Virus record (IMG/VR): IMGVR_UViG_3300033049_000020
Location: 88,465 to 152,464 of that record
Source: a virus
Strand: one strand, 5' to 3'
DNA: 64,000 bases
A program made the position numbers and the translations under genes. Numbering within the stretch: the first letter of the stretch is position 1; each line of letters begins with the position of its first letter. Under the pieces are notes generated by a model. The model did not search any database. It saw only the letters and a program-made list of their open reading frames with translations, and was not told the DNA's origin. Shown here piece by piece: positions 4,548 to 60,881 of the stretch.

Positions 4548-4624
4548 GGGGGATGGGACTGCTTTGGAGTGGTCACCTCACTTGCAATGAGGAAATCAGA
4601 TGGGTTCGAATCCCATATCCTCCA
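4548..4624 (+). tRNA. tRNA-Ala(TGC)
   Basis: G3:U70 pair; CCTCA-CTTGCAA-TGAGG. Confidence 0.85.
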
Positions 4625-6017: not shown

Positions 6018-6053
6018 CCCTTGACTTTTTGGTACTTAGCCATATTTATATGT

Positions 6054-6695
6054 ATGAGGAAACCAAAAACGATACATTACCTTTACAAGACTACTTGTAA
6101 AGTAACAAATAGGTACTATGTAGGGATGCATAGTACCAACGACTTAGAAGACGGTTATATGGGTTCTGGAAGAAGGTTACGAGCCTCAATCAGGAAACAT
6201 GGTGAAGATAACCATACCAAAGAGATATTGGAGTTCTTTGATGATAGAGGACGACTGATAGAAGCAGAGAAGGAATCTATTACCTTAGACATGATTGATG
6301 ATAAGGATTGTATGAATCTGATGGGAGGTGGAACAGGTGGTTTCATCAGCGAAGACCAACAGAGGCATCGTTCAACGATTGCAGTGGAGAAGAGAGAAAA
6401 GAAGAGAGAGGACGACCCAGAGTGGGATAAAGAGTATAGACAAGCTCAATCCCTATCATTGATGAAGCAATATGAGAGTGGTAAGCGAGTATCCAAGCTC
6501 CCAAACTGGGAAGGTAGGAAACATTCAGAAATTACTAAAGAGAAGATGAGGGAGACTAAGAAGGGACAAGGCTCTGGCGAAACTAACTCTCAATACGGTA
6601 CTTGTTGGATAACCAAAGATGGTTCCAACAAGAAGATTAAGAAACAACTTCTTGATTCATTCCTTACTGAAGGATGGGTTAAAGGTAGAAAATAA
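6054..6695 (+). CDS. GIY-YIG (Seg-like) homing endonuclease with NUMOD3-like motif
   Basis: YLYKTT...YYVGMH...YMGSG; GRKHSEITKEKM. Confidence 0.85.
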   Translation: MRKPKTIHYLYKTTCKVTNRYYVGMHSTNDLEDGYMGSGRRLRASIRKHGEDNHTKEILEFFDDRGRLIEAEKESITLDMIDDKDCMNLMGGGTGGFISEDQQRHRSTIAVEKREKKREDDPEWDKEYRQAQSLSLMKQYESGKRVSKLPNWEGRKHSEITKEKMRETKKGQGSGETNSQYGTCWITKDGSNKKIKKQLLDSFLTEGWVKGRK

Positions 6696-8188: not shown

Positions 8189-8244
8189 TTAACCGAATGG
8201 ATGGTTAAGTACGAATAACGCTTCTCTCTGTCATATTTACATAT

Positions 8245-8661
8245 ATGACAGAGAGAAGAAAAAAACTCCATTTTATTTATAAGATTACCCATATCAAATC
8301 TGGTAAGTATTATTTGGGTATGCATTCAACATTCGATATGGATGATGAGTATATGGGTTCAGGTAAAAAGATAGTGGCATCCGTTAAAAAGTACGGAGTA
8401 GAGAAACACACTAAAGAGATTTTAGCATATGCTAAGAGTCGTAGTAGTCTGGTAAAGTTAGAAGCTGAGATGGTTACCGAAGATGTTGTGAGCGAAAAGC
8501 TTTGCCTCAACATGAAGAATGGTGGACATGGAGGTTTTGCTGGCGAGACGCATAAGAAGAGATTCATGGCCGCAGGCAGAAGAAAGAGGAGATTTAATCT
8601 TAAGAAGAAGAAAGTGAAGAAACGTATTGCAGCAAGGAAAGCAAAAGCAAGGAAAAAATGA
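8245..8661 (+). CDS. GIY-YIG endonuclease-family protein with basic tail
   Basis: FIYKITH...YYLGMHS...YMGSG; similar to 6054. Confidence 0.8.
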   Translation: MTERRKKLHFIYKITHIKSGKYYLGMHSTFDMDDEYMGSGKKIVASVKKYGVEKHTKEILAYAKSRSSLVKLEAEMVTEDVVSEKLCLNMKNGGHGGFAGETHKKRFMAAGRRKRRFNLKKKKVKKRIAARKAKARKK

Positions 8662-9334: not shown

Positions 9335-9377
9335 AATTAAATTTGGTAGTATGGATTATTTTACCTATCTTTGTAGT

Positions 9378-14887: not shown

Positions 14888-15781
14888 ATGTTTAATATTT
14901 TTAACAAAGAGGTGTTTGACACCAAGAAGATAGTTACTGTGGAAGAAATCCACCAAGAGTTTGATGATGCACAAGAAAAAGTGTTAAAGGAAGCTTCAGA
15001 CATACTGGATGGTATTCCTACCAAAGATTCTAGATTAGAAAGGAAGGCACTTAAATTAGAAATTACTGGTTTCGCTAAGTCGGAATTATTACAGGAATAT
15101 TATACTAAGAATACCGAAATAGAAACTATTGCAAAAGCGGTGGAGGGTAGAAAACGTATGTTGGATAGTATTATGAAATTCATTCAGAAATATCCATACC
15201 AAAAGTTTATCACAGTTGATGAATTGGATAATATTTGTGGCAAATATGGGTTGATATATGCACCCGTCAAACACTACATCAAAGATGTTCCAGAGAAGAA
15301 TCTAGACGAAATAGTTAATAGGAAGGAGCTTCATAGTTCTGAAATAACACCAGTTGTTCATATTGTGTCAAAAATAAGTTTTTGGGACAATACACCACAA
15401 GATTATCAGGATTTTGTGAATAAGCATATCTTGAACCGAGTCTTTCCCGATAAAGAAATGACTGAACGAAACTTTGAACAAGTGATTGAAGAGCGAGGAT
15501 GGAAAGATGGTAAGTCATCCCAGTATTGGTTTAGGAAGGCAACTGTGAAGACTGAAGATAATGCTGGATTACAGGTTGCCGCTCCAGAATCACATTTTGA
15601 TTTGAAAGGATTGAAAAAGACCAAGAAATTTGGTTTCGCTAAAGTGGAATATATCGAAACTAAAGACCCAATTGTTTTTGAATACTGTAAAGACAATATT
15701 GTACGAATAATAAGTAAGTGGGGGACTGACGATGACCAATCATATTTGGACGAATCGTTGATTAATCAAAATTTAAACTAA
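14888..15781 (+). CDS. Hypothetical protein, paralog of 13959
   Basis: Same shared motifs as 13959. Confidence 0.8.
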   Translation: MFNIFNKEVFDTKKIVTVEEIHQEFDDAQEKVLKEASDILDGIPTKDSRLERKALKLEITGFAKSELLQEYYTKNTEIETIAKAVEGRKRMLDSIMKFIQKYPYQKFITVDELDNICGKYGLIYAPVKHYIKDVPEKNLDEIVNRKELHSSEITPVVHIVSKISFWDNTPQDYQDFVNKHILNRVFPDKEMTERNFEQVIEERGWKDGKSSQYWFRKATVKTEDNAGLQVAAPESHFDLKGLKKTKKFGFAKVEYIETKDPIVFEYCKDNIVRIISKWGTDDDQSYLDESLINQNLN

Positions 15782-15865
15782 AAGAAAAAGTGAAATAATT
15801 GTCCAAAGATTTGGTAGTGTGGATTATTTTACCTATCTTTGTAGTGTTCTTTGAAATGATAGATA

Positions 15866-16181
15866 TTGAAGTATTAGGATTTAAAGATTTATTTCTGCAA
15901 TTAAAAGCGAAATAACGGTTCTAAGGTACTGACAGCCGTGAAAGCGGCCTAGGGATAGTAGTGTTAGACAGAAGTTTGATGTTAACGCATTAAATGTTTA
16001 CTGCGGTAGGAAAGGCTCTTCGGAGTTACGAAAACATTACGTGCTCAGTGTTGCATATGTGGGCTGGTTCAAGGAGGTTAGACTCTCTGCCCAAAAAAAT
16101 GCAATTTATAGCGGCCATAAGCGCTCGTGGAGATGTAGTCTGCATCGAATAGAGTAATTAAATCTATATCCGATACTTCAA
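15866..16181 (+). ncRNA. Structured ncRNA of about 315 nt, family unknown
   Basis: Ends pair (TTGAAGTAT/ATACTTCAA, AGATTTA/TAAATCT); GC-rich tetraloop hairpins; preceded by promoter and boxA. Confidence 0.6.
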
Positions 16182-16202
16182 CCTTTAAAAATATTTAGGA
16201 AA

Positions 16203-17016
16203 TGCTTGGCATTAACCTGATGAGGCAATCACGAATGTAGTGGATACATTGCAATAGTAGTGATTGTAACTGGTAAGTGAGAACCAACCATGGAACGGTT
16301 ATCATAGTCTTGCCGCACGTAGAGTGCCAACATGCCTCTAAAGCATTAGATTCATACGATTGAGTGTGGGTCGTGGTTGACGGATGGTGCAAACCCCTCC
16401 CAAGACGCAAAGGAATAGTGAGAAGAGTGGTAGTTCGCCCTACTTTGTCCCCTTAAGTGGGATGCTCTTCTGGCGACATTATTCCGAGAAATTAAAGATA
16501 GATTGGAGAGTGACCTATTAGCGTAGGCGGCCTAGTTGGGGTGGAACATACTACGACACCCAACAACGTGGTTAGAGGTCATTGAAGAGTAAGTGTATGT
16601 GACGATGACACGCTCTCCTAACTGTATTGTTTACCGCAGCATCCGAGATTCAAGGTAGGACTGGGCGTTTGGTTTATCCAACGAAGAAAACTTGGGAGAA
16701 TTGGCGAGTCGATAGGGTAGATATACCTTGAATACGCGAAATAAATTGTTCAAAAGGGGCGAATCGAGAGTCGAGGTATTTGTCGTTCCAAACCGAGAAA
16801 CTCGAACTACTGGCGAGTAGATTCCACTAAAGATGAAAGCTTGTCTAGGGTGGTGAATACGTAGATGCCCCACCTGTTAAAAGGTTCCAACTACCGTTGG
16901 AGGATGGTCGTGGTCGGAGTGGTGTTCGATTAGTAGCAATGACTTGAAAAAATCAGAGGTCACTGTCATACGCTGTGAATGGGCGTATCGGTAGTCGGAC
17001 ACCGTAAGTTCTGATG
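16203..17016 (+). ncRNA. Series of self-closing structured RNAs (16203-16409, 16412-16485, 16505-16618, 16626-16940, 16952-17016)
   Basis: No credible ORF; elevated GC; terminal complementarities such as GGAATAGTG/CATTATTCC and GGAGAGTG/CGCTCTCC. Confidence 0.5.
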
Positions 17017-17212
17017 AAGGGGTGCCCATGCCCCACCTATATGGTTCGAACTACCGTTCGAACAGAGATGTGTCGACTTCCAACCGACTATATAGCATTC
17101 TCGAAAAAAACAGAGGCAAAGGGGGTACGCTGCAAATGGGCGTAATAGGTAGCTATATCCGAATAAGTATAGTAAGTCGCCAGAGACTTGGGATTCATCT
17201 CTGGCGGTAATT

Positions 17213-17297
17213 GGCGCAATAGCTCAGTTGGTAGAGCGAGGTTTAAAAATGCTACTTGTAGCGGCCTTGGTCGGTGGTTCGAATCCATCTTGCGCCA
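17213..17297 (+). ncRNA. tRNA-like RNA with aberrant anticodon arm
   Basis: GGCGCAA/TTGCGCC; canonical D and T arms; anticodon region holds an extra GCTAC-TT-GTAGC hairpin. Confidence 0.65.
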
Positions 17298-17302
17298 CAT
17301 AT

Positions 17303-17360
17303 GGGGAGGTCAGAGAGGTAGCATTAGGGCTACCCAAGGGTTCGAATCCCTAACTCTCCA
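17303..17360 (+). ncRNA. Mini tRNA-like element lacking a D arm
   Basis: GGGGAG/CTCTCC, GGGTTCGAATCCC, one internal hairpin. Confidence 0.4.
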
Positions 17361-17371
17361 CTATTATATAA

Positions 17372-17570
17372 GGTACGGTAGCTCAGATTGCGTTAGAGCA
17401 CTCTTCCTATTAGAGGTGTACAACTTGAAGTAGGAGTATTAAGATGACTGATAAGATAGTATAGTGAGATTCCCTGATGTACAAGGAGGAACGTTGCTAG
17501 AGTGAAATTGAAAGAAGTCTCGATATTAATAACATGAGAGGGGTCGGTGGTTCGAATCCCTCTAGTGCAA
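17372..17570 (+). ncRNA. tRNA-like RNA with an insertion of about 125 nt at the anticodon loop
   Basis: TAGCTCAG..AGAGCA D arm, CTCT/AGAG stem, GGTTCGAATCC; acceptor stem poorly paired. Confidence 0.45.
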
Positions 17571-17595
17571 CTAAAATATTTTAAACGAATATACT

Positions 17596-18483
17596 ATGTA
17601 TAAAGGAGATTTAAAAAATGTACCATCAGAAGTGGTGGTAGTAATCTTGGAAAGGCAGTTAGAACAAGGCAATAGAAGGGATGTAAGTGTATTTGAAGAA
17701 ACTCTATATGCCCAACAAGATGAAAATGGGTTCGATTGGGATGCTGCGCCAGAAGGCGATAATTTTTGGGAGAGAGTTTTGGAGTTTGAGGAGTGGGAAA
17801 TATTTTTCGAGAAATATCCTAGGAAGTCTTGTGGAGATTATAAGGAGGGTGATTATATTATAGTTACTGAACTTCACGGTGAGTCTAACTACTATAATTG
17901 GTTTATGCCAAATGAAGTTATAAAAGTTGGTGGTGACCGTTGGATGGGGTCTTTAAGAGAACATTTTGCGGCTATAAGTGCTAACAACTACCCAAATGGT
18001 AACGGCATGAATTATAATTTTGAAGAAAACTACAAGATAAGACATGCTACAGATTGGGAAATATTATTATCATTTTGGGGTAGTTTTCCAAAAACTAAAA
18101 TTGAGTTACAAGTAGGGGACACTTACGAGAACTCAACAGGTAAGATGATGAGGATACATTCAATGAATAACAGTATGTTATGGTACATACATGAGAATGG
18201 TACTCTGTACGAGGAAGAAAAAAATACAATATTGGAACGATTAGAAAGGAAGTTATACAAGAATTATAAATCAGTAAATAATAAATCAAAAACAATTAAA
18301 AATGAAGTACACAGAGAGAATTCAGAATCAAGGCGAACAAGCAACAAAGGTATTAGAGCAATTAGGCAAAAGGTCGAAATTGCAAGCGCAAGCAGACCTG
18401 TTGGAAGTAGAGTCTCAGATATCCGACAAAGAAACAGACCTAGAAAATCTACGATTAGCGGAAGGAGAGTATTCTTTAACTAG
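17596..18483 (+). CDS. Hypothetical protein
   Basis: 295 aa; its C-terminal ~60 codons overlap the next gene. Confidence 0.65.
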   Translation: MYKGDLKNVPSEVVVVILERQLEQGNRRDVSVFEETLYAQQDENGFDWDAAPEGDNFWERVLEFEEWEIFFEKYPRKSCGDYKEGDYIIVTELHGESNYYNWFMPNEVIKVGGDRWMGSLREHFAAISANNYPNGNGMNYNFEENYKIRHATDWEILLSFWGSFPKTKIELQVGDTYENSTGKMMRIHSMNNSMLWYIHENGTLYEEEKNTILERLERKLYKNYKSVNNKSKTIKNEVHRENSESRRTSNKGIRAIRQKVEIASASRPVGSRVSDIRQRNRPRKSTISGRRVFFN

Positions 18484-18571
18484 AGTAGCGGAATGTCAAC
18501 TTGCGTTGAACGACCTGAATGCCGTTTACAAATTGATGAATAAAGAGATGATTGCCGAATTCGGCAAGTAA
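18302..18571 (+). CDS. Hypothetical coiled-coil protein
   Basis: A-rich leader; helical composition. Confidence 0.6.
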   Translation: MKYTERIQNQGEQATKVLEQLGKRSKLQAQADLLEVESQISDKETDLENLRLAEGEYSLTRVAECQLALNDLNAVYKLMNKEMIAEFGK

Positions 18572-18611
18572 TCAAAAACATTAAGGATAACAACCTTGTG
18601 GGTTACAAAAT

Positions 18612-18921
18612 ATTATCTGCTTTAAGCAAACAGTAAACACGCTGCCCATGGAACCGTTGATAACCTATATTATAGGAAGGAGGGGCAAGGATAATGAAAG
18701 GAATAATACGTCCTTTTTAATTTACAGTCTAACCAAGACGTTGTTTGTATTAGAGGTGTAGACAGAAGTAACTGTTTTGTTACGACCACTCAACCTTTGG
18801 TGGGTTGACAGATATAATATTGAGAGTGATAGACAGCTCCTGAGTGGATACAGGGCGATTAGGACTAAGGAGAGTCATTAATGACTAGCCTCCTACGGGA
18901 ACACAACTCCGTCTAGCTCTT
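18612..18921 (+). ncRNA. Two putative structured RNAs (18612-18818, 18822-18921)
   Basis: ATTATCTG/CAGATATAAT and GAGAG..TAGAC/GTCTAGCTCTT end pairing; several hairpins; no ORF. Confidence 0.4.
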
Positions 18922-55746: not shown

Positions 55747-56457
55747 ATGAGTATAGTAAGAGCATTCGAAACCGCATTTTCAGACGCTGAGAGAAAGGGT
55801 TGGGATTATATTTATGTCTTCGTGGACTTACATAGTACTGTAATTAAGCCAAATTATACTGCTGGTAACATACCATCAGAATTCTATATTGGAGCCTTAG
55901 AAGCACTTAAAATGATGAGTGATACTGACGACATGAAACTCGTTATGTATACGTGTAGTCATCCACATGAGATTGAGAAGTATATTAAGCTGTTCGAGGA
56001 GCACAATATAATATTCAATTATGTAAATGAGAATCCAGAGGTAACTACAACACCTCAAGGGTATGGTTGTTATGATATGAAGCCATATTTTAATGTAATG
56101 CTTGAGGATAAGGCAGGTTTCTATCCAGAAGAGGATTGGGAGCCAGTAAATAATTATCTAAGACTTAGATATGATGTAGGTAGTCCAGATGCATGGTTCA
56201 AAGGATTGTTGATTAATATCAAAACCAATCCTAATTTTAAGGAAGACACTATGATAAGGTCAATATCGGCTATAGATATTGACATGTGGAATGAAGAATT
56301 TCCTGAAGCCAATTTTTATAATAGTTCTTTAGATAGGAAAGAATTTTTCAGTAGAATCAAAATAGCTAGCACCAAAGGGATGTTATCCTGTGACCCATGG
56401 AAACCATTCATAGATACTATTATAGAGATACAAAAAACAAAACCAAGATTAGGATGA
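55747..56457 (+). CDS. HAD-like hypothetical protein
   Basis: FVDLHST ... YVNENPE ... KPYF...EDKAGF. Confidence 0.6.
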   Translation: MSIVRAFETAFSDAERKGWDYIYVFVDLHSTVIKPNYTAGNIPSEFYIGALEALKMMSDTDDMKLVMYTCSHPHEIEKYIKLFEEHNIIFNYVNENPEVTTTPQGYGCYDMKPYFNVMLEDKAGFYPEEDWEPVNNYLRLRYDVGSPDAWFKGLLINIKTNPNFKEDTMIRSISAIDIDMWNEEFPEANFYNSSLDRKEFFSRIKIASTKGMLSCDPWKPFIDTIIEIQKTKPRLG

Positions 56458-57227
56458 CAAAGATTAAGGGAGAAGATTTTAGAAAATTACATGAAGGTGC
56501 GTGTGGAGAATGGCAAAAAAAGTTAGAAGATTGGTTTGCCCTCGATATTGCTATATATGGCTGGGCTAATGTATCTAACTCTAACTTATCAAATATGAGA
56601 AGTGCCTCAGATTCAGCACAACGCAAAATATTAGATGATATGTTCGGTTGTCAATATGAAATTGGAGATTGGGTTACTAAAATTGATACCCCATTTTCAG
56701 ATGACACATATACTAAGAAAATCTACAATATACAGAACGATGGTTGGTTACAATTTGAAGGGGAATTAATGCCAGATAATACACTAAACGCTTTCAATCC
56801 ACGTAAAGAATATTTGCGTTTGGCAACCAATGACGAAATAGATTCGATGAAATCTAAATTTAAAATAGGTGATTGGGTTACATGGACAGGTGCCCATCCC
56901 ACTACTGCTCAGATAATGGATACTTGTAAGTATGAGTCAGATTGTTGGAATTTATTAGGTATAGGGAAAACAGGTAACTACGACTTATGTAATGAAAAAC
57001 ATTTAAAATTTGCGACTAAGAACGAAATCAAGGTAGCTAAAGAAAATAGCTGGAAAGAAGGTGAGCCGTATTTAGTGTCATTCAGGGATGAAGGGTGGAA
57101 GTTAGCATATAGCACTGACACATTTGAACATTTCTATTATGAGTCTAAAAAGAGTGGTGGTAGCTCATACTACTCAATTTACCAAAAGTTGAGCTTAAAT
57201 ATTGATTATCCCGTAAAGGACTTTTAA
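56397..57227 (+). CDS. Hypothetical protein with internal repeats (true start probably 56454)
   Basis: Two IGDWVT ... AT..EI repeats. Confidence 0.65.
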   Translation: METIHRYYYRDTKNKTKIRMTKIKGEDFRKLHEGACGEWQKKLEDWFALDIAIYGWANVSNSNLSNMRSASDSAQRKILDDMFGCQYEIGDWVTKIDTPFSDDTYTKKIYNIQNDGWLQFEGELMPDNTLNAFNPRKEYLRLATNDEIDSMKSKFKIGDWVTWTGAHPTTAQIMDTCKYESDCWNLLGIGKTGNYDLCNEKHLKFATKNEIKVAKENSWKEGEPYLVSFRDEGWKLAYSTDTFEHFYYESKKSGGSSYYSIYQKLSLNIDYPVKDF

Positions 57228-58811: not shown

Positions 58812-59286
58812 GAGAGCACCATCATACGTAATCGTAAAACAATACATCAACTCCAAAGGGGTAACGATACCAACAATACTCATTAACAATATTAGTGAGA
58901 TAATGGAATTTGATGACGAAGACAAGGCCACTAAGCTGGCCATGTTATTTGAAGCCAATTCTGATTCAGGTTGGAAATATAACGTTAAAAAAATAGGATA
59001 ATTATGGAAAAGCAAGAAGTGCAAAAAGTAAAAGTTTATCTATCGATATATGGTGATTATACCGCATTTCATGAAATATCAGTGGTTGTTGAATATGACA
59101 TTACTAATAAGAAACAAATAGGTGATATGACATTAGAAGAATGTGAAAACTTCAATAGTGATGATAGTGATTATGGTGACACTGAGTTACATGATGCAAT
59201 ATTGATTGATGGTAGGTATTACTATTCGATTTAATTTGCATATGTTAAATATATTTCGTACCTTTGTATTAAATCAAACTTAATAG

Positions 59287-60255: not shown

Positions 60256-60881
60256 TGATTGATAAGAATTTCTTTTATGAAACTGAACTTAAAGCTGCTC
60301 ATGGTGGATGTCCTCACGCAATGAATAATGTGTACCTAAAGTTATATAAGGCTATGCAACCAACGGTTGAGTATCATTTTTATAATAATGCATTAGGACG
60401 AGAAATCATCCAAGATAGTATTATAAAGATATTCAAGCGTCTTGATAAAATTAATTACAAGGCAATGAGTAGATACGCTAAGAGGACGGCCAGTAATATG
60501 TGTATTGATACGCATCGTAAAAATGCCATAAAAGACCGTAAACTTGAAATTAGTATGGATAAGCCTCTAATGACTTCCTATGATGTGAGGACGTTTAAAG
60601 ACTTACTCCCAAACACAGACGATACTAGCCTTTACGATAAATATAATCCAGATATAGTCTGGGAGCAATTGTTTGAAGCTATTAACGAACTATCTCCAGC
60701 ATACAAGAGAATATTTGAGATGTTTTACTTAGACGAAATGAGTCACGAAGAAATTAGCGAAGAGCTAGGAATTTGCAAAGGAGCATCCAAATCCAACCTG
60801 TTCAAGGCTAGGAATAACATGAGAAAGAAATTAGGTTCATACAACGGAGTCTTGAAGAAAGATTTTGAACCTATATGGTAA
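60255..60881 (+). CDS. ECF-type sigma-70 factor
   Basis: EIIQDSIIKIF...N..ID..RK; LSPAYKRIF...MSHEEISEELGI..GASKSNLFKAR. Confidence 0.9.
   Translation: MIDKNFFYETELKAAHGGCPHAMNNVYLKLYKAMQPTVEYHFYNNALGREIIQDSIIKIFKRLDKINYKAMSRYAKRTASNMCIDTHRKNAIKDRKLEISMDKPLMTSYDVRTFKDLLPNTDDTSLYDKYNPDIVWEQLFEAINELSPAYKRIFEMFYLDEMSHEEISEELGICKGASKSNLFKARNNMRKKLGSYNGVLKKDFEPIW

Follow-up and report, generated by a model that had tools for sequence, protein, structure and literature searches.

A promoter- and boxA-led block in a tRNA-rich region of a large phage is probably an array of recombining structured RNA modules

What is encoded in positions 15782-17595 of the 64-kb window analysed here, an ORF-poor stretch flanked by genes 14888-15781 and 17596-18483? 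The window is the final 64 kb of the 152,464-nt IMG/VR record IMGVR_UViG_3300033049_000020, whose completeness estimate of 43% points to a very large phage as the source, and tRNA genes, all of them on the + strand according to Rfam and ARAGORN, are abundant in it. The longest open reading frames (ORFs) within the stretch reach 80-81 aa, none is kept in the homologous contig L043 introduced below, and none of nine window ORFs queried (0/9) was present in the protein collection. GC content is 0.41-0.48 across 15900-17400 against about 0.29-0.38 in the flanks, no + strand intrinsic terminator was found in 15600-18700, and the proteins encoded next to the block gave no hint to its function. We find that the block is probably the body of a phage stable-RNA operon, in which a boxA-like leader precedes independent, recombining cassettes of structured RNA. 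A first-pass annotation had read about 1.4 kb here as a promoter- and boxA-led array of structured RNAs belonging to no family that could be assigned, and this interpretation is supported as far as sequence analysis reaches: the lack of a credible ORF, the higher GC content, the promoter and boxA, three closing helices and a T-arm-like hairpin were all recovered, and the start of the second unit, the outlines of two further units and one long-range helix had to be given up. The elements as now drawn are listed below.

15810-15841, +: Bacteroidetes-type promoter, TTTG at 15810-15813, 20 nt, then TATCTTTG at 15834-15841; an exact fit to the pattern
15844-15857, +: boxA-like leader motif GTGTTCTTTGAAAT, with GTTCTTTGAAA within it at 15846-15856
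15858-16200, +: module U1, about 340 nt; closing helix 15866-15880 / 16168-16181, hairpins with a GAAA tetraloop (15935-15948) and with UUCG (16016-16025)
16220-16410, +: module U2, about 190 nt, with an invariant 26-mer at 16327-16352; at its 3' end an acceptor-like stem (16370-16376 / 16400-16406) encloses a T-loop hairpin (stem 16383-16387 / 16395-16399, loop TGCAAAC 16388-16394)
16412-16485, +: module U3, 74 nt; 7-bp outer stem, 7-bp second stem and two hairpins, one with the loop CTTAAGT
16505-16618, +: module U4, 114-nt four-way junction closed by GGAGAGTG/CGCTCTCC
16625-16866, +: module U5, about 240 nt, with an invariant 35-mer (16625-16659) at its 5' end
16867-17027, +: u1, first tandem copy of the u module, without the last hairpin; 134 bits with covariance model R1
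17028-17210, +: u2, second copy of the u module, multibranch; hairpins 17043-17062 (loop TACC), 17152-17173 and 17178-17206
17213-17298, +: X1, tRNA-like, with normal acceptor, D and T arms and a hairpin in place of the anticodon loop
17303-17360, +: 58-nt minihelix, acceptor/T-arm with G3:U70, its pairing read from the sequence
17372-17571, +: X3, a tRNA 5' half and a tRNA 3' half about 125 nt apart, acceptor strands unpaired

Relatives of the block were reached through its neighbours. A blastn search of the region against 50,697 phage records gave no match, and the upstream gene 14888-15781 led to homologues of at most 45% identity and to three long contigs without a non-coding block beside the gene. 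The downstream gene 17596-18483 led to L021 and L023, two contigs of one phage that have the promoter, the boxA-like motif, X1, X3 and the downstream gene in common with the window; their non-coding blocks do not align to the window block and hold none of its modules. A spurious ORF in the L021 block (P0210), searched in the protein collection, led in turn to L040, L043 and L044, and the same kind of search with an ORF from U1 found nothing. L043, a metagenome contig of 2,517 nt (JGI 3300024262), carries several of the modules: U2 (window 16220-16420) matches L043:1145-1344 at 73% identity, U5 together with u1 (window 16625-16999) matches L043:1340-1723 at 73% in a single 397-nt BLAST alignment, and u2 (window 17019-17208) matches L043:1584-1773 at 83%. 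The 3' end of U5 (window 16813-16867) recurs at L044:1-54 with 82% identity. As a scale for these values, the neighbouring protein gene is 70-75% identical to that of L040, a different relative. With P denoting promoter plus boxA-like motif, the layouts are as follows.

Window: P-U1-U2-U3-U4-U5-u1-u2-X1-minihelix-X3
L043: P-TLD-like RNA-M1a-U2-U5-u-tRNA-like-tRNA-like
L040: P-M1a-M1b-X1-M2-X3-M3
L044: ...U5-X1'-M1b-X1''-minihelix

In L043, U2 is directly joined to U5, and because it runs straight into U5, U3 (16412-16485) and U4 (16505-16618) are absent there. The u unit is a single copy in L043 and a tandem pair in the window, where u1 and u2 are 69% identical over 132 nt; in L044 a tRNA-like gene follows directly after U5. 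The block of L040 consists of M1a and M1b, of which the former recurs ahead of U2 in L043 and the latter between two tRNA-like genes in L044. Since modules are separately present or absent in the relatives, they are separate units of inheritance, and our verdict is that recombination has exchanged them within a narrow clade of large, marine-type phages. Exact-pattern scans of viral, metagenome and genome collections with the u motifs, X1, X3, U5 and U2 returned only chance hits plus L023, and a pattern match in Psychromonas, which lies inside coding sequence, was likewise dismissed as chance. When complete records of related phages, every retrieved locus and the genome of the phage itself were searched at the DNA level and with a covariance model (R1, u module), only the three training copies were recovered.

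A GIY-YIG/SegE-like ORF stands 3' of the RNA array in L043 (L043:2006-2515; Pfam scores below cut-off), and at least six paralogues of it are scattered in the tRNA region of the window phage. From these paralogues, homing-endonuclease traffic is a plausible engine of the module shuffling.

Window 6042-6340: GIY-YIG/SegE-like paralogue
Window 8238-8488: GIY-YIG/SegE-like paralogue
G000:C1 about 56290-56620: GIY-YIG/SegE-like paralogue
G000:C1 about 58940-59030: GIY-YIG/SegE-like paralogue
G000:C1 about 60550-60880: GIY-YIG/SegE-like paralogue
G000:C1 about 81000-81100: GIY-YIG/SegE-like paralogue
G000:C1 about 82510-82865: GIY-YIG/SegE-like paralogue

The homologous modules made it possible to ask whether base pairing, and not just sequence, is conserved, a homologue and covariation check that the first-pass annotation had called for and that yielded three modules with compensatory changes. 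From pairwise or triple alignments, RNAalifold proposed 43 consensus pairs for U2 (5 compensatory, 0 broken), 52 for U5 (2 compensatory) and 48 for u (7 compensatory). As RNAalifold selects pairs that fit, three controls were added. Against column-shuffled alignments, conserved-structure z-scores were -4.0 on the + strand and -1.7 on the - strand for U2, -2.3 and -0.6 for U5, and -6.6 and -5.8 for u. Transfer of a single-sequence fold from one relative onto the other was significant for u2 placed onto L043 (P = 0.0004), gave P = 0.04 in one direction and 0.22 in the other for U2, and showed no significance for U5. Finally, 8 of 40 pairs in u were changed on both sides, a count matched by 0/500 shuffles, with slid controls giving 0-2; the corresponding count for U2 was 5 of 43, with 16/500 shuffles as high and slid controls giving 0-1. 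The clearest helix is the u2 hairpin at 17152-17173, in which four consecutive pairs vary among the three sequences with pairing kept, and in the TACC-loop hairpin (17043-17062 in u2, 16885-16902 in u1) a G:C is swapped for a C:G. Conservation is uneven, as in functional RNAs, with the invariant 26-mer of U2 and the invariant 35-mer of U5 embedded in modules that are otherwise 73% identical. Compensatory changes beyond chance in sequence without a conserved ORF, the generic mark of a structured non-coding RNA, are thus present in u and U2 and weak in U5. From these alignments we regard U2 and u as very probably functional structured RNAs, and U5 as a candidate held with less confidence.

The anatomy of U2 and U5 differs in part from what had been drawn before. 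The second unit had been placed at 16203-16409; homology begins at 16220, and the presumed closing strand 16203-16212 is not conserved in L043. The hairpin noted at its end, GG-TGCAAAC-CC, is real: its L043 counterpart is a textbook T-arm, TTGGG-TTCGAAT-CCCGA (GGG-TTCGAAT-CCC at its core), on a 7-bp acceptor-like stem. Relative to L043, two pairs of the window's hairpin stem have changed in a compensatory way and one is mismatched, the loop still follows U-N-C-R-A-A-Y, and a TGCAAC-type loop is found as well in a well-paired tRNA-like gene at about L043:1776-1888. Units earlier outlined at 16626-16940 and 16952-17016 were redrawn as U5, u1 and u2. The fold of 16620-16945 as first proposed was no better than shuffles (z -0.4), and its long-range helix ATTCAAGGTA/TACCTTGAAT has, in a comparison by eye, two uncompensated mismatches in L043. 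U5 instead comprises two look-alike halves, both ending in TGGCGAGT[CA]GAT (internal repeat family D9), and its local pairings TTCAAG/CTTGGG in the first half and TCGAG/CTCGA in the second show, as read by eye, compensatory changes between halves and phages. As a separate observation on U2, a single-stranded-looking invariant part, ACATGCCTCTAAAGC (16330-16344), is a 15-nt perfect complement to the + strand at G000:C1:5991-6005, inside a 1071-aa ORF (G000:C1:5156-8371) with no function assigned; about 0.01 matches would be expected among the segments tested, and the complementarity could mark a small-RNA target or be chance.

The remaining modules, U1, U3 and U4, were defined from single-sequence folds. 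The closing helices that had been proposed for 15866-16181, 16412-16485 and 16505-16618 all appear in the minimum free energy (MFE) folds, with z -2.1 for U1, -2.9 for U3 (-2.1 on the - strand) and -2.9 for U4 (-1.1 on the - strand); the MFE structure of U3 makes up 22% of its ensemble. No homologue of U1 was found, and U3 and U4 are without homologues in L043 or elsewhere in the searches made. A 22-mer of U1, AAAAATGCAATTTATAGCGGCC (16095-16116), is 86% identical to the hairpin inserted into the anticodon arm of X1 (17245-17266), at a borderline E of 0.04.

The block begins like a transcription unit for stable RNA. The pattern TTTG-N19-21-TAnnTTTG, which we take to be the Bacteroidetes -33/-7 (sigma-A) promoter consensus with TTTG at -33 and TAnnTTTG at -7, is matched at 15810-15841 with a spacing inside the 19-21 nt range. 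Chance would give 1.44 such sites in the window; there are 22, this one among them, of which 19 are on the + strand. The copy here is nearly identical to that at 9342-9373. The motif that follows resembles the rrn boxA (GUGUUCUUUGAAAU against UGCUCUUUAACAA in E. coli). The form GTTCTTTGA[AC]A also opens other stable-RNA operons and tRNA arrays of the phage, again on the + strand, at window coordinates -40324, -31467, -7727, 2699, 3447 and 21373, and heads seven stable-RNA operons of the genome in all. Several of these copies sit behind an attenuator terminator rather than a promoter, which makes the motif an RNA-leader signal and not a promoter part. The 20-mer TTTGYAGTGTTCTTTGAAAT is present in a further 14 phage contigs of IMG/VR, five of which have a transfer-messenger RNA (tmRNA) gene recognised by Rfam (69-109 bits) 2 nt 3' of it, as listed below; in several more, tRNA genes follow close 3' of it.

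L036:3942-4346: phage tmRNA gene beginning 2 nt past TTTGYAGTGTTCTTTGAAAT, by Rfam
L029:2060-2465: phage tmRNA gene, same position and source
L034:868-1273: phage tmRNA gene, same position and source
L033:1724-2156: phage tmRNA gene, same position and source
L028:460-892: phage tmRNA gene, same position and source

Given a tmRNA start only 2 nt downstream, the boxA-like motif would be the short 5' leader of the tmRNA in those phages. It is a putative boxA that, judged by this resemblance and placement, would recruit the host NusB/NusE antitermination machinery; a literature search with the leader-motif strings gave no useful match. The same promoter and motif open another stretch of interest in L032 (IMGVR_UViG_3300033463_000032), a complete 128-kb phage with terminal repeats, where the stretch of about 1.36 kb that follows 4582-4601 on the - strand contains no ORF of at least 70 aa, no tRNA and no Rfam family, and is unrelated in sequence to the window block; it may be another array of uncharacterised RNAs.

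At its other end the block runs into three tRNA-like elements. X1, the first feature of known type after the block, scores 53 bits as an Rfam tRNA with a 23-nt insert, is reported by ARAGORN with an 'anticodon aaaa', and is 97% identical in its 3' half in L023/L040; it would share the transcription unit of the block. X1-type genes in which GGGG-NAAAN-CCCC replaces the anticodon arm recur in L023, L040 and L044. The 58-nt minihelix has a weak Rfam tmRNA match (16 bits, E 6e-4) that covers only two ends of the model. The two halves of X3 (GGTACGG... at the 5' side and ...AGTGCAAC at the 3' side) cannot form an acceptor stem, which makes X3 a chimera of two tRNA-like genes; its 3' end is 83% identical to X3 of L023, and its 5' half resembles, by eye, the complete tRNA-like gene at about L043:1776-1888. 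By their predicted structures X1, the minihelix and X3 cannot decode, and the recurrence of tRNA-like elements between modules suggests that they are processing or stabilising handles. Right after promoter and boxA-like motif, L043 also carries, at 756-896, an RNA of about 140 nt. Its acceptor stem is GGGCGUA/UACGUCC (G3:U70, A73) and its T-arm is canonical, but neither a tag frame nor pseudoknots can be recognised in it, and it may be a shrunken tmRNA. Beyond the downstream gene, the non-coding window segment 18642-18737 aligns over 104 nt, at 67% identity, with L040:71-169 and L043:437-535, which are part of another ORF-free block upstream of the relatives' promoter, and it may be a further conserved RNA module.

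Do the modules belong to families already described? Rfam 15 was scanned at gathering thresholds and, for 15600-17700, by cmscan at E ≤ 10, and no family was found in 15858-17210 at either setting, which bears out the earlier statement that families could not be assigned. The top scores inside the block are at chance level (e.g. sR30, 16.9 bits against a 38-bit cut-off), no other Rfam 15 family (riboswitches, ribozymes, 6S, RNase P, group I/II introns, HEARO, OLE, raiA) comes near its gathering threshold in the block, and ARAGORN reports no tRNA or tmRNA in 15858-17210. The first-pass annotation had offered relatives of GOLLD (RF02032) and ROOL or new classes as alternatives; neither model is listed by cmscan, this library does recognise GOLLD in the related contig L030 when run with gathering thresholds (284.6 bits), and so new classes is the half of that alternative that fits. 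The L030 copy (8203-8609, - strand) is found within the tRNA array; L030 is a complete phage of 207 kb in which this promoter-boxA motif is also in use. A tRNA (RF00005) identity was set aside as neither Rfam nor ARAGORN finds a cloverleaf in 15858-17210, where an acceptor-like stem with a T-loop hairpin occurs at the 3' end of U2 alone, and a rewired tRNA as no unit has an acceptor stem and T-arm enclosing an anticodon arm. Descent of the block from tmRNA (RF00023) was rejected: Rfam at E ≤ 10, ARAGORN and an nhmmer search that used a profile built from five phage tmRNAs all gave no hit. A hammerhead at CTGATGAG (16218) is not conserved, L043 having TCAATGAG, and a miniature inverted-repeat transposable element or other repeat was rejected for want of further copies within the 152-kb genome. 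At least three modules, U2, U5 and u, are therefore put forward as conserved RNA families absent from Rfam 15; no description of them turned up, and no targeted literature search was made.

Several points weigh against a functional operon of separate RNAs and have to be set beside the other ways of reading the block. The covariation comes from two to three sequences, with one full homologue (L043) and one fragment (L044); U1, U3 and U4 have no homologue, and their support is thermodynamic with modest z-scores; the u module scores nearly as well on the - strand (z -5.8) as on the +; U5 covaries weakly, with its 2 compensatory pairs and a fold transfer without significance; and the chimeric X3 together with the T-stem mismatch of U2 in the window implies that part of the operon is decaying. 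The last point, with the anticodon loop missing from X1, the halves of X3 that do not match, the absence of homologues for U1, U3 and U4, and a minihelix that resembles a tmRNA cut down to its tRNA-like domain, would suit a graveyard of decaying tRNA and tmRNA genes mixed with recombination debris from homing-endonuclease traffic, perhaps transcribed and without function. Five related phages do have a full tmRNA directly after the same promoter-boxA, GIY-YIG (Seg-like) genes are frequent, and the L043 ORF has its at least six paralogues in the genome. Such a graveyard would not be expected to show compensatory pair changes with conserved-structure z-scores of -4.0 and -6.6, invariant 26- and 35-mers in modules that are otherwise 73% identical, or GC content held 10 points above the genome background, and no tmRNA remnant is seen in the block by Rfam or by a hidden Markov model (HMM) of the five phage tmRNAs, so that we think it quite improbable.

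The block could also be a single composite RNA of about 1.4 kb in the manner of GOLLD or ROOL, the units being its domains. One promoter without internal terminators, units that are all self-closing like the domains of large RNAs, GOLLD itself in the tRNA region of the related L030, and pairings between hairpins proposed by RNAalifold (e.g. CAACCAT/GTGGTTG in U2) speak for this, yet independent gain, loss, duplication and reordering of units among four related contigs is hard to reconcile with co-folding, tRNA-like elements stand between and at the ends of the modules, and at E ≤ 10 neither GOLLD nor ROOL nor any further model of a large RNA gives a match; we judge it unlikely. There is little to recommend a long regulatory 5' leader of gene 17596-18483, riboswitch-like or protein-binding: in L043 the same modules precede a different gene (the GIY-YIG-like ORF), the leader in L023/L040 has none of the block's modules, tRNA-like elements intervene between block and gene, and no riboswitch family matches, even though no terminator separates the block from the gene and the homologous gene in L023/L040 is also preceded by a long non-coding region. 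Equally small is the chance that the block is an element acting as DNA, its hairpins serving, for instance, an origin of replication, a packaging site or a hot spot of recombination. The tandem duplication u1/u2 and the strong conserved-structure scores of u on both strands fit such an element; U2 and U5, however, fold clearly better on the + than on the - strand, a difference that points to G-U pairs and hence to RNA, a promoter and an RNA-leader motif lie directly upstream, the T-loop and tetraloop hairpins are RNA motifs, and the block contains neither iterons nor an AT-rich unwinding element.

Under the preferred reading, a boxA-led operon of recombining RNA cassettes, transcription would start at about 15845 from the Bacteroidetes-type promoter, and the boxA-like motif in the first bases of the transcript would recruit NusB/NusE, allowing about 1.75 kb of untranslated, highly folded RNA to be made without premature termination. 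The transcript would consist of about seven independent structured modules (U1-U5, u1, u2) followed by the three tRNA-like elements, and the modules would behave in evolution as separate genes, their sets and orders differing among related phages and always lying between tRNA-like handles. The U2 minihelix, X1, the G3:U70 minihelix and X3 may be recognised by RNase P and tRNA 3'-end enzymes, whose cuts would release and cap the modules, a scheme that can be likened to mitochondrial tRNA punctuation and to the tRNA scaffolds of engineered RNAs. Whether antitermination and handle-directed processing operate in this way is, in our estimate, evenly balanced. Because the block is located among genes for tRNAs, tmRNA and aminoacyl-tRNA synthetases, the likeliest field of action is the host's translation or tRNA-targeting machinery, and our guess from this context is that the released RNAs work against or together with host tRNA-directed machinery, for example as decoys or binders of tRNA-directed enzymes. 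The fuller proposal, in which one antiterminated operon expresses a recombining cassette library, non-decoding tRNA-like handles excise, cap and stabilise the cassettes, homing endonucleases shuffle them, and the cassettes bind, or act as decoys for, tRNA-directed or defence proteins of the host, is speculative, and we think it rather doubtful as a whole; if true, the protein anti-defence 'accessory islands' would have their counterpart in RNA.

Phage tRNA islands are hiding places of large RNAs with no function assigned, such as GOLLD and ROOL, and this locus presents a different layout, with several small, unrelated structured RNAs behind one promoter and boxA-type leader, set apart or terminated by non-decoding tRNA look-alikes and exchanged as cassettes among related phages. 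If the handles do direct processing, the locus would be a natural precedent for the tRNA-scaffold expression of recombinant RNAs, and no fewer than three new RNA families (U2, U5 and u) with comparative support would be gained. The modules are short targets (70-240 nt) for structure probing, cryo-electron microscopy and screens for binding partners, and they raise the possibility that some phages invest in RNA as well as protein accessory genes around the translation module.

Comparison with known systems places the block near several of them. Like antiterminated operons of the rrn type (boxA, NusB/NusE), it has a boxA-like motif at the very beginning of an untranslated transcript that comprises several RNAs, tRNA-like genes among them, but its cargo is neither rRNA nor tRNA. 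As in tRNA punctuation and scaffolds (mitochondrial transcripts, MALAT1-mascRNA, engineered tRNA scaffolds), non-decoding tRNA-like structures flank or end the modules and could direct RNase P and 3'-end processing, although the junctions U3/U4, U4/U5, U5/u1 and u1/u2 are without a tRNA-like element. With tmRNA it is linked by the promoter-boxA that drives tmRNA in the five related phages, by the 58-nt G3:U70 minihelix downstream in the window, and by the RNA of about 140 nt with a G3:U70 acceptor stem and T-arm that L043 carries at the tmRNA position, whereas Rfam, ARAGORN and the phage-tmRNA HMM detect nothing tmRNA-like in the block itself. With GOLLD and ROOL it has in common a structured, protein-free RNA beside phage tRNA genes to which no function is assigned; it differs from them in being a string of small (70-340 nt), independently recombining modules and not one conserved large fold.

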